A stretch of DNA of 64,000 nt from an uncultured Eubacteriales bacterium. GTDB lineage: Bacteria; Bacillota; Clostridia; TANB77; CAG-508. Position 1 is the first letter of the stretch. Each line of letters begins with the position of its first letter. Where the stretch lies: NCBI GenBank assembly GCA_949840345.1, contig CATKWX010000001.1:155538-219537 (forward strand), read 5' to 3'. The position numbers and the translations under genes are program-made. The notes beneath the pieces are model-generated. The model worked only from the letters and a program-made list of their open reading frames with translations, was not told where the DNA came from and made no database searches. Shown one piece after another: positions 30,085 to 57,728 of this stretch.

Positions 30085-30200
30085 GTTTTAAAAAGAATTA
30101 GTATATGGCTCAAGCATTTTTATTTAAAATACCGGAAGCGTACTGTTTGTATGCCGAGGATTTTTTGAATAAAAATAACGACGCAATATGCTGATTCTTT
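30085..30200 (+). repeat. Family B structured element (about 110 nt)
   Basis: AAAAGAATTAGTATAT, a covarying outer helix, (A)CCGGAAGCGTAC..GTA(C)GCCGAGGATTTTTTG, and AACGACGCAA(T/G)ATGCTGATT. Lies between lysA and dapA. Confidence 0.75.
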
Positions 30201-30285
30201 TTAAAACTTTTATCTTCACCTTATTATGTATATCAACATATTATATTATATCTATTTCTTTTATGGGAAGGATGTGTATGTTAAT

Positions 30286-31172
30286 ATGAAAAACATAATC
30301 TTTAAAGGCTGTGGAACAGCTATTGTAACTCCGTTTGATGATAATGGAATTAATTTTTCTGAGTTTAAAAAGTTAATTGAATTTCAAATAGAAAATAAGG
30401 TTGACGCAATTATAGTTTGTGGAACAACTGGAGAATCCTCTACAATGAGTTTAGAAGAAAAAAAACAAGCAATAAAGTTCTGTGTTGATACTGTAGATGG
30501 TAGAGTTCCAGTTATAGCTGGAACTGGTGGAAATTGCACAGAATCTGCCATACTTTTAAGCAAATATGCTGAAAGTGTTAAAGCAGATGCGCTTTTACTC
30601 GTTACTCCATATTATAATAAAACTACTCAAGCCCGGTTTAATAGAGCACTTTAAGGCAATTTCTGGTAGTGTGAATTTACCTATTATTTTATATAATATA
30701 CCTAGCAGAACTGGCCTTAATATTTCGCCTGAAACTTGTTTAGAACTATCTAAAATAAAAAATATTGTTGCAATTAAAGAGGCTTCACGGTAATCTTTCT
30801 CAAGTAGCTAAAATTGCAAACTTATGCGGAGATTCTCTTAAGATTTACTCTGGAAATGATGACCAAATACTACCTATTCTATCCTTAGGTGGAATTGGTG
30901 TTATTTCAGTTCTATCTAATATTATGCCTGAATATACTAGTAATATAGTTCATAGCTTTTTTAATGGTGATATAGATAAATCTATAAAACTACAAATAGA
31001 TGCAATACCATTAATAAATGCTTTATTTTGTGAGGTTAATCCAATTCCAGTTAAAGCAGCTCTTAATGAAATGAACTTTAATGTAGGAATTCCAAGATTA
31101 CCTTTAGTTGAACTTACTTGTTTAAACAAAGAAAAATTATTCAGAGAAATGAGAAAATTTAATATTTTATAG
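30286..31172 (+). CDS. dapA: 4-hydroxy-tetrahydrodipicolinate synthase; two frameshifts
   Basis: DapA sequence is spread over three frames (ORFs 30226-30654, 30566-30793, 30765-31172). The sequence gccCggttta replaces TQAGLIEHF at about 30634, and tcaCggtaat replaces EASGNLSQ at about 30788. Both are an extra C before GGT. Confidence 0.75.
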
Positions 31173-31262
31173 TTTACAAATTAATTTTTGTGATATAATT
31201 AATTTATAGTACTTAAGGAAACTTAGCCTTGTTATTAAAATAATAAATTATTTTTAGGATAG

Positions 31263-31796
31263 ATGCATATGAAAAAAGATGAAAATATTATAGATGAATT
31301 TAATTTAACAATTACAGATATAGTAAACAATGATACAGTAAATCTTATGAAAAACTTTAGACAACATTATGACACAAGTTGTTTTGAACACTGCAAAAAT
31401 GTTGCTTTTTATAGTTATTTAATTTGTAGAAAACTTAACTTAGACTATGAAGCTGCCGCCCGTGCTGGCATGCTTCATGACTTATTTTTATATGACTGGA
31501 GAAGGAAGACTGGAGACAGAAAAGGCTGGCATGGCTTTAGACACCCAAGAATTGCTCTAAATAATTCAAGCAAATTATTTGTTTTATCTAAAAAAGAACA
31601 AGATATTATTTTAAAGCATATGTGGCCATTAACTATTGTTCTTCCTAAATATAAAGAAAGCTTTATAGTTTCTTGCGTAGATAAGTTTTGTGCAATTAAG
31701 GAGTCTTATGAACATTATAAAGAAAATCGTAAGCTACAAAAAGCATATAGGTATGCATATGTATTCTTAAGTTTAGTAATCTTTAAAATTGTATAA
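31263..31796 (+). CDS. HD domain-containing phosphohydrolase
   Basis: H...HD motif (GMLHDLF), 177 aa. Confidence 0.55.
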   Translation: MHMKKDENIIDEFNLTITDIVNNDTVNLMKNFRQHYDTSCFEHCKNVAFYSYLICRKLNLDYEAAARAGMLHDLFLYDWRRKTGDRKGWHGFRHPRIALNNSSKLFVLSKKEQDIILKHMWPLTIVLPKYKESFIVSCVDKFCAIKESYEHYKENRKLQKAYRYAYVFLSLVIFKIV

Positions 31797-32101
31797 CAAT
31801 ACTTGTTTCTTTTCCACACTATTTTAATAAAATTAAAATAAGATATATATATAATTTTTAAACGAACGGATGTGGGGACCGACAAATTACAGACTGTAGA
31901 AGAAATTACGAAAGTAAATTTCGGCATACAGTCTGTTATGCAGTTGGGAGTGAATTTAAAAAATTATATATATATCTTATTTAATATCATTTCTTCTAAA
32001 CTCATATATATTAATTCCTATATTATTTTTGTAATTATCAAAATACATTTAATGCATATTTTCATAATTTTCAAAATATATTTTATTGAAAGGAAAAGCT
32101 T

Positions 32102-32857
32102 ATGATTAATGTTTTATTAAATGGATGTAATGGAAATATGGGAAAAGAAATTAAAAAGTACATAGATAATATCGAAAATTTTTCTATTATTTGTGGTTTT
32201 GATAGAATTGATAGTGGAGACAATGATTTTCCAGTTTATACAGATACTAATAGCATTATAGAAACTCCAGATATTATAATAGATTTTTCTGTTCCAACTG
32301 CTAGTATTAATATTCTAAATTATGCAGTTTCAAAAAAGATCCCCATAGTTATAGCAACTACGGGATTTTCAAATGAGCAATTATATGTACTACAAGAAGC
32401 TTCAAAATCTATTCCTATTTTTAAGTCTTCTAATATGTCTTTAGAAATTAATATTATGAATATTTTAGTTTCTAAACTCTCTAAATTATTAACCGATTGC
32501 GATATTGAAATTATAGAAACACATCATAAAAACAAAATTGACGCACCAAGCGGTACAGCATTAATGCTTGCAGATTCTATAAATTCTTCCCTAAATGATA
32601 GTATGACATATACATATGATAGAACTAGCTCTAGAGAAAGAAGAAAATCAAATGAAATTGGCATCCACTCTGTAAGAGGTGGAACAGAAGTTGGCAAACA
32701 TACTGTATTATTTTTAGGAGATAATGAAAGTTTTGAAATCACACATACAGTTTCTTCTAGAAAAATATTTGCAATTGGCGCAATTAAAGCTAGTGAATTT
32801 ATTATTAATAAGCAAAATGGATTATATGGAATGGAAAATTTAGTAAACTTTAACTAA
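32102..32857 (+). CDS. dapB: 4-hydroxy-tetrahydrodipicolinate reductase
   Basis: N-terminal NAD(P) fold (LNGCNGNMGKEI) and the DapB C-terminal domain, 251 aa. Confidence 0.8.
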   Translation: MINVLLNGCNGNMGKEIKKYIDNIENFSIICGFDRIDSGDNDFPVYTDTNSIIETPDIIIDFSVPTASINILNYAVSKKIPIVIATTGFSNEQLYVLQEASKSIPIFKSSNMSLEINIMNILVSKLSKLLTDCDIEIIETHHKNKIDAPSGTALMLADSINSSLNDSMTYTYDRTSSRERRKSNEIGIHSVRGGTEVGKHTVLFLGDNESFEITHTVSSRKIFAIGAIKASEFIINKQNGLYGMENLVNFN

Positions 32858-56553: not shown

Positions 56554-56577
56554 AATATAATCCTTTTTTAGGGTATT

Positions 56578-56695
56578 CCTCTGGAGTACGGGTCGTCGGG
56601 GACGCCGACCCCTACAAATTAATTATTCATTATTCGTTTATACATTACTAGGGTATTTCTCTGGAGAACGGAACGACGAGGGCGTCGTTCCCTAC
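56578..56695. repeat. Family A: W plus H12 (gggtcgtcggggacgccgaccc) plus CTACA plus heptamers plus W plus H1' plus CTACA
   Basis: Lies between the two acyltransferase genes. Confidence 0.75.
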
Positions 56696-56698
56696 AAA

Positions 56699-57568
56699 TT
56701 AACTCTTCACTGCGTTAGCTTTTGTGGTGTATTCTAATGGAATTCCATAAAATTTCTCATATATATTTTTCCAAATATTAAAATTTTGTTCCTTCATTAA
56801 TTCAATATTTTGTCTGCTTTGCATATCAACTCTTGGATATATCGGTTCTTCTATATGTACAAAATATTCCTTTATTGGGAATCCATCAACTCCTATAGTT
56901 TCAGTATCTTTCATAGTTATAAACATTGGAATTACTGGCACATTACTTTTAGTTGCCATTTTGAAAGCTCCACTTTTTAGTGGCTTTGGCTTTTTATAAT
57001 TCCACCATAAACTTTGTTCTGGATATATTAATATAAAATTTCCCTTTCTTAAAATTGTATCTACCGCTTCTAAAAATTTTACCATAGTTCTCTTATTTGA
57101 GCTTAATGGCAATGTATCACAATTTCTAAATAAGAAACCATAAAATCCTGGAAAGTTGGTATAATTACCTTCTCTTATAACTTTATATAATTTTCTTTCT
57201 TTATCTTGACCAGATTCTCTAAAAACTTTTTCAACAGTAAACACATCCATTGGATTAAAATGATTACAAGTTATAACAGCACCTGTTTTTACTTTTTGTA
57301 AATTTTGGATACCATTTATTTCTTTTATAATTAACTTATTATTTTTTAGTAATTCGTTTAAAAATACTTTTCCAACACTATTTGCAAAACTTGCCTTTAA
57401 CTTATTTCTTCCCTTTTTTTTCAAATAATCTATATTATCTGGTGTAAGCACAATAGTAGGAGGGTCATTTTCTGCATCTTCATCAAAACGACCTTCTAAT
57501 TCTAATCTTTCAATTTTTTCTAATACTTCCAGTCTATACTTATCTTTCTCTATAACTTGTTCTTTCAT
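56699..57568 (-). CDS. lysophospholipid acyltransferase family protein (LPLAT)
   Basis: HX4D motif (CNHFNPMD) and an IYPEQS block. Confidence 0.55.
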   Translation of the reverse strand: MKEQVIEKDKYRLEVLEKIERLELEGRFDEDAENDPPTIVLTPDNIDYLKKKGRNKLKASFANSVGKVFLNELLKNNKLIIKEINGIQNLQKVKTGAVITCNHFNPMDVFTVEKVFRESGQDKERKLYKVIREGNYTNFPGFYGFLFRNCDTLPLSSNKRTMVKFLEAVDTILRKGNFILIYPEQSLWWNYKKPKPLKSGAFKMATKSNVPVIPMFITMKDTETIGVDGFPIKEYFVHIEEPIYPRVDMQSRQNIELMKEQNFNIWKNIYEKFYGIPLEYTTKANAVKS

Positions 57569-57614
57569 TTATAGCAACTTTCCTTTCCCATCTAAAAGTA
57601 TATAACTAGAGTTT

Positions 57615-57728
57615 GTAAAAGAATTAGTATATTGCAAGGCAATTCAAATCAAAAAAGCGGAAATGTACGATTGTACTTCTAAGCATTTTTTGATTTGAAT
57701 TAATGCAAGCAAGATGCTTATTATTTTA
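57615..57728 (+). repeat. Family B structured element
   Basis: Helix caaatcaaaaaa/ttttttgatttg and inner gtac-gatt-gtac. Confidence 0.7.

Follow-up and report, generated by a model that had tools for sequence, protein, structure and literature searches.

In this work we examined a 64-kb stretch of a contig from an uncultured Eubacteriales bacterium (the window, by which the whole stretch is meant) and a repeat in it designated Family B. Four copies were located there, all on the plus strand and all placed between genes. Copy 1 (30082..30210) occupied the lysA-dapA spacer and was the only one in sense orientation with respect to its neighbours; copy 2 (39074..39198) lay between uvrB and rdgB, copy 3 (48944..49069) between sufD and sufS, and copy 4 (57609..57735) between a GT8 gene and an acyltransferase gene, the neighbours of these three being encoded on the minus strand. 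Copies 1, 2, and 4 belong to subfamily a and copy 3 to subfamily b. The window was scanned with a profile hidden Markov model built from the four copies, which returned these four only as full copies (E-values from 1e-31 to 2e-35), and with the degenerate core pattern CGGARRYGTAC-N4-5-GTAY-N4-5-AGSATTTTT, which gave four matches vs. 0.00 expected from shuffled sequences. This confirmed the number and orientation of copies given in an earlier note made from the sequence alone, whose flanking genes were also correct. With the model R1 the copies scored 86, 114, 126, and 89 bits on the plus strand (copies 1–4, respectively), and only two reverse-strand matches were reported in the window, at 27–28 bits (27 bits for copy 2).

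Each copy was an imperfect palindrome of around 125 nt that folded into a single rod-like hairpin, with minimum free energies from -39.5 to -44.9 kcal/mol and z-scores from -6.5 to -9.4; none of 200 shuffled sequences folded as well, and the reverse complements folded worse by 5–14 kcal/mol. The helices listed in the earlier note did pair in these folds, although the length of 110 nt proposed there was too short, because the segments at the two termini, AAAAGAAT.. and ..ATTATTTT, form a helix and make the full ~125 nt one palindrome. The sequence AAAAGAATTAGTATAT, described as common to all copies, was present in three of the four, copy 3 having AAAAGAAACAAGTAT instead, and the core CCGGARGCGTAC..GTACGCCGAGGA was exact in copies 1 and 3, its counterparts being GCGGAAGTGTAC..GTACATTGAGCA in copy 2 and GCGGAAATGTAC..GTACTTCTAAGCA in copy 4. 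The apical cores, all on the plus strand, were delimited at 30133..30165, 39123..39154, 48993..49024, and 57658..57690 by their match to the core pattern, together with hairpin energies in copies 1–3 and a terminator-like flag on the plus strand in copy 3; in copy 1 the core consisted of an A-tract, CC-GGA, the stem GCGTAC..GTATGC, GA-GG, and a T-tract.

In three of the copies, the hairpin base coincided with the end of a minus-strand gene. The 3' end of copy 2 overlapped the stop codon of uvrB (TAA of the C-terminal open reading frame (ORF), 39191..39193), which lay within the outer stem; the stop codon of sufD (TAA, 49067..49069) was at the base of copy 3, in the same position as in relatives without the element; and the outer stem of copy 4 included the final two codons and the stop codon (TAA, 57726..57728) of the GT8 gene. 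Immediately upstream of copy 1 a fragment could be read from the sequence (ATATGCTGATTATTTTC, 30062..30080, plus strand) that corresponds to the 3' arm of another subfamily-a copy. Full copies in tandem occurred in one of the loci from other genomes (L058, positions 4911-5044 and 5035-5168).

Species-representative genomes were scanned once with the core pattern, and at least 113 stretches matched. Among the matches listed, the carriers were mostly uncultured Clostridia and gut metagenome-assembled genomes (MAGs) of Clostridium and Eubacterium (from rabbit, goat, mouse, and Hadza humans), along with E. plexicaudatum ASF492 and a few MAGs of Gamma- and Deltaproteobacteria, Planctomycetales, and Oscillospiraceae in which the arms were rich in GC. 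All the loci that we fetched folded into the same long hairpin, and a profile derived from them detected 170 copies across the fetched DNA (849 kb); 51 of these do not fit the search pattern and constitute a fairer sample of the natural variation of the apex. The element is small (125 bp, or 172 bp in the Lachnospiraceae subfamily), non-coding, and dispersed in many copies. Its arms varied by subfamily and by locus yet remained complementary, and in the subfamilies of the window the outer 6–8 bp differed from locus to locus with complementarity kept.

The apex followed a constant order: A-tract, a clamp of 2 bp, a purine-rich GGA/GA internal loop, the stem GYGUAC-N4-GUACRY, and a T-tract. The A-tract on the 5' side and the T-tract on the 3' side were present in all 170 copies, those outside the search pattern included. 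The 51 extra copies displayed stems of the types GTGC..GCAC and GTAT..ATAC, which are compensatory variants, as well as CCGCAG in place of CCGGAG, and a clamp changed from CC/GG to UU/AA was found with the GA/GA loop retained. The apical hairpin was more stable on the plus strand (-8.9 kcal/mol) than on its complement (-5.2 kcal/mol), and a T-tract of around 6 T in 9 nt followed it on both strands. In a simple terminator scan of two copies, copy 3 was flagged on the plus strand and copy 2 was not. The apex looks like the layout of an intrinsic terminator, predicted to be stronger on the plus strand than on the complement. Resemblance to a K-turn, a tetraloop receptor, loop E, a CsrA site, or a Chi site was considered, and none of them fitted the consensus.

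A consensus hairpin of 51 pairs, obtained as a vote over single-sequence folds, was evaluated on two alignments. In the MAFFT alignment of 114 distinct copies, 79.7% of the cells were paired vs. 64.6% in shuffles (none of 500 shuffles reached the observed value), the covariation score was 0.365 vs. 0.148 in shuffles and 0.06–0.15 in slid controls, and 38 of the 51 pairs had changes on both sides. The corresponding values for the model-fitted alignment of 136 distinct copies were 88.3 vs. 64.0% of cells paired, a score of 0.566 vs. 0.159 (slid controls ≤0.126), and 48 of 51 pairs. Covariation with preserved pairing, which the earlier note had deduced from four copies, thus occurred far above chance across 114–136 distinct copies from many species. 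Pairing was also specific to one strand. Among isolated transition mismatches within helices, 105 were G.U and 8 were A.C, the number of independent G.U events being far below 105 because many of these pairs are subfamily-consensus positions; the isolated mismatches were used since the whole-arm count (298 G.U vs. 270 A.C) is confounded by internal loops. Of 114 copies, 105 were more stable on the plus strand, with a mean difference of 9 kcal/mol, and G.A, A.G, and C.C mismatches, as well as G.U, were conserved at fixed positions. This strand-specific pairing and stability indicated that some single-stranded form of the plus strand matters, so that this part of the former proposal of a functional RNA or single-stranded DNA stood. 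In a mobile inverted repeat, covariation of the arms alone is not enough to show RNA function.

The orientation of the well-folding strand with respect to the genes was strongly biased. It was antisense to both neighbours in 70 loci and sense in 14, the remainder being mixed, and when orthologous loci were collapsed the independent co-directional loci were 45 antisense and 7 sense (P = 7e-8). Most copies had the stop codon of the opposite-strand gene 44–49 nt from the core, a distance that corresponds to the hairpin base, and in the commonest arrangement the T of the stop codon was the first paired nucleotide. The 3' end of the element abutted an opposite-strand stop codon in 49 of 73 independent loci, including uvrB, sufD, and the GT8 gene in the window and a locus of a Deltaproteobacterial MAG of 59% GC with a TGA stop. 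The next start codon was in some loci only 19–30 nt from the other end of the element, which means that the operon is transcribed through the element and that its mRNA carries the poorly folding strand. The sense-oriented exceptions immediately preceded the ribosome-binding sites of rplC, rplB, rpsH, rarA, and ychF, and ribosomal-protein operons held copies in both orientations. Judging from GC skew and gene orientation, the well-folding strand was the leading-strand template for most copies. In the aligned copies, information content upstream of the hairpin was at background level, with neither a positioned -10/-35 nor any sigma-70 promoter signal; the element presented neither a promoter of its own nor a consistent transcription context. 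The CTAG-bounded Lachnospiraceae subfamily showed no clear polarity, a contrast that points to survivorship, rather than to an insertion bias, behind the polarity of the older AT-rich subfamilies.

Presence and absence of the element varied at orthologous sites of the sufD-sufS, rpsJ-rplC, and rplJ-rplL junctions. The sufD-sufS spacer measured 226 nt in the window and 1, 18, 20, and 36 nt, with no element, in four relatives (67–71% SufD identity), and both the C-terminus of SufD (..LD) and the position of its stop codon were the same with and without the element; copy 3 was thus an insertion when compared with the loci of relatives. The orthologous copy was present in relatives with 92 and 77% SufD identity and absent in one with 82%. 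Among these orthologues we found a double change from G-C to A-U in the apical stem, one substitution that yields a U.G wobble on the plus strand, and a swap from A.G to G.A across an internal loop. At the rplJ-rplL junction, whose neighbours L1 and L10 were recognised from sequence, ten species carried different subfamilies, all antisense and starting at the stop codon or 3–6 nt beyond it, which indicates repeated insertion or replacement at a single junction.

For rpsJ-rplC, 80 metagenome loci with L3 proteins 75–94% identical were analyzed with the covariance model. The element was present just upstream of rplC in four of them, and a few more spacers were enlarged. Where present, it lay inside the loop of a separate conserved leader hairpin, AACCAAGCUGAU..AUCAGCCAAUAG, from which it follows that sense-oriented copies are insertions as well. 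The idea that the sense copy before rplC is an ancient ribosomal-protein leader RNA ancestral to the family was rejected on the basis of this occupancy (4/80) and of the nesting in another hairpin. The leader hairpin itself (AACCAAGCUGAU..(variable)..AUCAGCCAAUAG) appeared right before the Shine-Dalgarno sequence of rplC, around 60 nt upstream of the gene, in the rpsJ-rplC spacers of loci L128-L207 (for instance in L128 around 690-790), and is a candidate ribosomal-protein leader element.

In E. plexicaudatum ASF492, two unrelated loci (L009 and L092) had 172-bp copies of identical sequence. The ends of this Lachnospiraceae subfamily were sharp and conserved (CTAGTACACCGTAAAAT..ATTTTACGGTGTACTAG), and the nine aligned copies of this type were bounded by CTAG|TACAYC..GRTGTA|CTAG, except for one variant left end (TCTAGTAT). 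Such CTAG bounds are typical of DDE transposons that target TA or CTAG, with RUP/IS630 as a precedent (PMC2229807). In the remaining subfamilies the hairpin base was bounded by TA..TA in 18 of 105 copies, as compared to 0–1 in outward-shifted controls and 2–10 in inward-shifted ones, and target duplication in the AT-rich subfamilies is put forward only tentatively. At L009 (3720-3910) and other loci of the Lachnospiraceae subfamily, the terminal GTACACCGTAAAAT was similar to one half of the core at the apex (GTACAYCGA..). Joining of the two ends would create another hairpin tip of the core type, making the circularised element a dumbbell.

No match to Family B was obtained when the whole window was searched against Rfam 15 at gathering thresholds, as the earlier note had suggested checking; the only match in the window at that threshold was a T-box leader (RF00230, 14565-14796, minus strand, 95 bits). 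A permissive Rfam search with an AT-rich copy and a copy of 59% GC from another phylum returned generic long-hairpin matches only, the best on the element being miRNA precursors (26 bits vs. cut-offs of 83–100) and Ref70 (18 vs. 115 bits). Nothing was found by blastn against PLSDB plasmids with two subfamilies, nor in IMG/VR viral scans with the core and the end of the CTAG subfamily, and a full-text search of 8 million papers for the core sequence gave unrelated primer matches only.

Other repeats in the window were related to Family B to variable extents. The Family A element (26531..26666, plus strand) was a divergent member (R1 45.9 bits, E = 4e-7) with the same arms and a different apex (GGCAAGGGCGCATATATGATATATGTAACCGCG), and folded to -42.0 kcal/mol vs. 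-26.7 kcal/mol on the reverse strand; the load of the window was therefore four copies plus one divergent copy. Two long hairpins of Family C, also on the plus strand (17213-17374 and 22203-22378; -46 and -59 kcal/mol, respectively), had the A/T-tract, the clamp CC-GAA..GCCGA-GG, and the orientation in common with Family B, folded better on the plus strand, and in one copy lay near a stop codon. The motif GCCGAGGA(A)TTTT, already reported as common to both families, was found at 17345 and 22348. Family C had a larger apical domain of around 100 nt, with an inner hairpin that differed compensatorily between copies (UUCAAGCUUGCCUUGAA vs. UUCGCGCAAGGCGUGAA), and gave no Rfam match.

A family separate from Family B was represented by around 40 GC-rich hairpins ending in CCCTAC on the plus strand (GTAGGG plus palindrome on the minus strand), that is, GTAG-tagged elements resembling repetitive extragenic palindromic (REP) sequences at about one per 1.5 kb, for example at 815-846, 4610-4641, 11417-11448, 22160-22183, 39026-39057, 48865-48895, and 56664-56695. 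The opposite orientation was found at 16017, 24261, 52611, and 52680, a strand bias of around 10:1. Because of these hairpins, a single-stranded DNA (HUH) system of the REP/RAYT (REP-associated tyrosine transposase) type probably operates in this Clostridia lineage. A perfect palindrome of 89 nt between convergent ORFs (34710-34798; AAAAAGAAATGTTGACAAAGGGGACGGAGCATTTTGGCAATTTT|AAAATTGCC...), unrelated to Family B, is probably a bidirectional terminator. Both dapA (30226-31172) and uvrB (39191-40991) were split by a frameshift into two ORFs, and independently made assemblies of the same locus gave identical split calls, which may reflect pseudogenes, programmed frameshifting, or an assembly artefact common to these assemblies.

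Taken together, we regard it as probable that the Family B repeats are small palindromic foldback elements, non-coding and mobile, similar to miniature inverted-repeat transposable elements (MITEs) and REPINs, which form a family spread through many gut Clostridia and have a polar, terminator-like apex. According to this reading, elements would land in the tiny spacers of operons, mostly right at the stop codon of the gene upstream, leaving the protein unaltered. Copies would persist when their well-folding, terminator-like strand is antisense to the gene, the operon mRNA carrying the weaker complement and reading through it; an apex acting as a one-way terminator would explain why antisense copies alone survive within operons, selection being the presumed cause of the polarity. 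Target duplication at TA or CTAG could be due to a DDE-type transposase (IS630- or IS5-like). The covariation of the arms is accounted for by a mobile palindrome in which arms vary and stay complementary.

Several observations do not fit easily with such an element. Boundaries of the TA..TA type were present in only 18–27 of 105 copies, and direct repeats of 3 nt or more at the flanks of the AT-rich subfamilies showed no excess over a chimeric control. In the ~0.9 Mb of fetched loci no transposase with matching ends was found, but only end pairs of MITE size; pairs of ends 0.6–3.5 kb apart, as expected for a parent insertion sequence, were absent for the CTAG subfamily in these loci, and the short, AT-rich ends of the other subfamilies carry too little information for such a search. 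In the window subfamilies conservation was highest at the apex and lowest at the termini, the reverse of a classical MITE. Part of the core conservation across pattern-selected loci stems from the search pattern itself. The preference for G.U over A.C on one strand (105 to 8), along with the compensatory changes in situ between orthologous copies, is not predicted by cut-and-paste transposition of double-stranded DNA and points to a single-stranded stage or function, as RNA or as single-stranded DNA. Between convergent genes the stop codon of the antisense gene was still abutted in ~11 of 12 cases, which selection alone does not obviously explain.

Alternatively, the element, mobile in origin, may have been exapted by the host, being kept either as a one-way terminator or insulator at the 3' boundary of genes, which keeps antisense or convergent transcription from running into the gene and allows read-through of the operon, or as an orientation-dependent stabiliser or processing site of mRNA, as in ERIC and Correia. 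The strict placement at gene 3' ends, convergent pairs included, agrees with it, as do the invariant A-tract and T-tract of the 170 copies, the stronger apex on the plus strand (with the flag of copy 3 on that strand), the persistence of orthologous copies with compensatory changes at 77–100% SufD identity, and the precedents of ERIC in mRNA stability and of RNase III on Correia RNA (PMC2229807). A simple terminator, however, needs neither arms of 45 bp nor a conserved stem sequence; the U-tract is 5 nt off the main stem, one of the two scanned copies passed the terminator scan, and close relatives lack the element at the same junctions, so that we consider exaptation rather unlikely. A structured non-coding RNA, in which the plus strand would be transcribed as a hairpin of ~125 nt that binds a protein through its purine-rich loops or targets the 3' end of the adjacent mRNA as antisense, with the numerous copies representing paralogous RNA genes, is in our opinion still less probable. 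The strength of the covariation (88% paired vs. 64% in shuffles, 48 of 51 pairs) and the strand-specific pairing do speak for an RNA, and so do the GGA/GA loop retained despite the change of the clamp from CC/GG to UU/AA, the A.G to G.A swap in an internal loop between orthologues, and the sense copies within ribosomal-protein operons, which are certainly transcribed. Nevertheless, an RNA gene as had been suggested was left unsupported, since Family B is a dispersed and insertion-polymorphic DNA palindrome, antisense to the operon in 45 of 52 independent loci, with no conserved promoter or upstream motif. The lack of an Rfam match, the 19–30 nt to the next start codon in some loci, the presence/absence variation among close relatives, and the identical copies with CTAG ends at two loci, which indicate transposition, also run counter to it.

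The fixed G.A, C.C, and G.U mismatches of a strand-specific hairpin resemble the substrates of HUH enzymes, and Family B could alternatively be a REPIN-like single-stranded DNA element moved by an enzyme of this class (Y1, RAYT/IS200-type) that recognises the apex and inserts the hairpin, with a polarity set by replication, beside a short target (TA/TAA) without duplication. This would be in keeping with the strong strand polarity, with the absence of significant direct duplications in the AT-rich subfamilies, with the plus orientation of the only window copy that lies in a plus-strand gene cluster, with the same extreme strand bias (~40 vs. 4) of the GTAG-tagged REP hairpins in the window, and with the long vertical persistence of REPINs (PMC3116915). 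Conversely, the well-folding strand is on the inferred leading-strand template, the opposite of the IS200/IS605 rule (PMC6006769), ribosomal-protein operons hold copies in both orientations, CTAG flanks the recently active subfamily on both sides, as is typical of DDE transposons, and the conserved unit is the apex rather than the two ends; mobilisation by such an enzyme thus appears improbable, if a possibility to be kept in mind. Quite doubtful, finally, is that the polarity is intrinsic to the element itself. Under that account a strand-specific hairpin, as single-stranded DNA or antisense RNA, would be set at translation stops in one orientation, either by an insertion mechanism that reads gene 3' ends or by host retention as a one-way gate against antisense transcription; its distribution would extend through Clostridia and, sporadically, to other phyla, the conserved GGA/GA apex being a putative protein-binding site.

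If Family B is indeed a mobile palindrome, a large group of uncultured gut Clostridia would harbour one such element every 5–16 kb inside operons, among them ribosomal-protein, suf, and DNA-repair operons, and operon expression may be shaped in a direction-dependent manner. Elements of this kind would fragment metagenome assemblies, in which many of the contigs with the neighbouring genes have a length of only 1–3 kb, and could be mistaken for RNA genes, since the arms of a mobile palindrome covary. They would also provide a testable case either of how mobile insertions are filtered in compact genomes or of an insertion mechanism linked to stop codons.

With respect to known systems, integron attC sites (60–140 bp) are also imperfect palindromes that keep structure over sequence, and they directly follow or overlap the stop codon of the gene before them. 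The functional folded strand of attC is the one antisense to this upstream gene, as in Family B. Unlike attC, Family B has no R''/R' GTTRRRY core sites, cassette array, or nearby integrase; its ends are TAAAAC..GTTTTA or AATTT..AAATT instead of RYYYAAC..GTTRRRY, and its neighbours are housekeeping genes (uvrB, sufD, lysA, and ribosomal-protein genes). Bidirectional intrinsic terminators (A-tract, GC hairpin, T-tract) have the same layout as the apex of every copy, whose energy is asymmetric between strands; in Family B, however, the apex is inside complementary arms of 45 bp, its stem is split by an internal loop, the T-tract is offset, and the sequence of the stem is conserved across species, a conservation that terminators do not need. 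REPINs share with Family B the condition of symmetric, hairpin-forming extragenic repeats of ~100 nt with high copy number and long persistence (vertical and over long periods in REPINs; PMC3116915), both presumably acting as single-stranded hairpins. In REPINs, conserved REP units of 20–40 nt with a GTAG/CGTC tag stand at both ends of a variable middle, whereas in Family B the middle is conserved, the ends are variable, and two inverted tagged REP units at the hairpin ends were not found; its well-folding strand is also on a strand unexpected for REP/RAYT mobilisation.

In size and distribution, Family B is also close to bacterial MITEs that are co-transcribed with the genes beside them, namely Correia/NEMIS of Neisseria, ERIC/IRU of enterobacteria, and RUP of S. 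pneumoniae (IS630-Spn1, TA target), which are non-coding and of 100–170 bp like Family B, and with which it has intergenic dispersal, an end-to-end stem-loop, and insertion polymorphism in common. A TA-type target as in RUP is plausible, given CTAG in the Lachnospiraceae subfamily and TA..TA in a subset of the others. The orientation of MITEs affects neighbouring genes, ERIC has orientation-dependent effects on mRNA stability, and RNase III processes Correia RNA (PMC2229807). In contrast to these families, Family B has its most conserved part at the apex and its least conserved part at the termini, occurs in many species and even in other phyla with the same apex on different arms, and displays an extreme antisense, stop-abutting polarity with strand-specific pairing (G.U over A.C). 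It is this combination of known MITE and REPIN traits with conservation centred on the apex, strand-specific pairing, and antisense placement at stop codons that makes Family B unusual.

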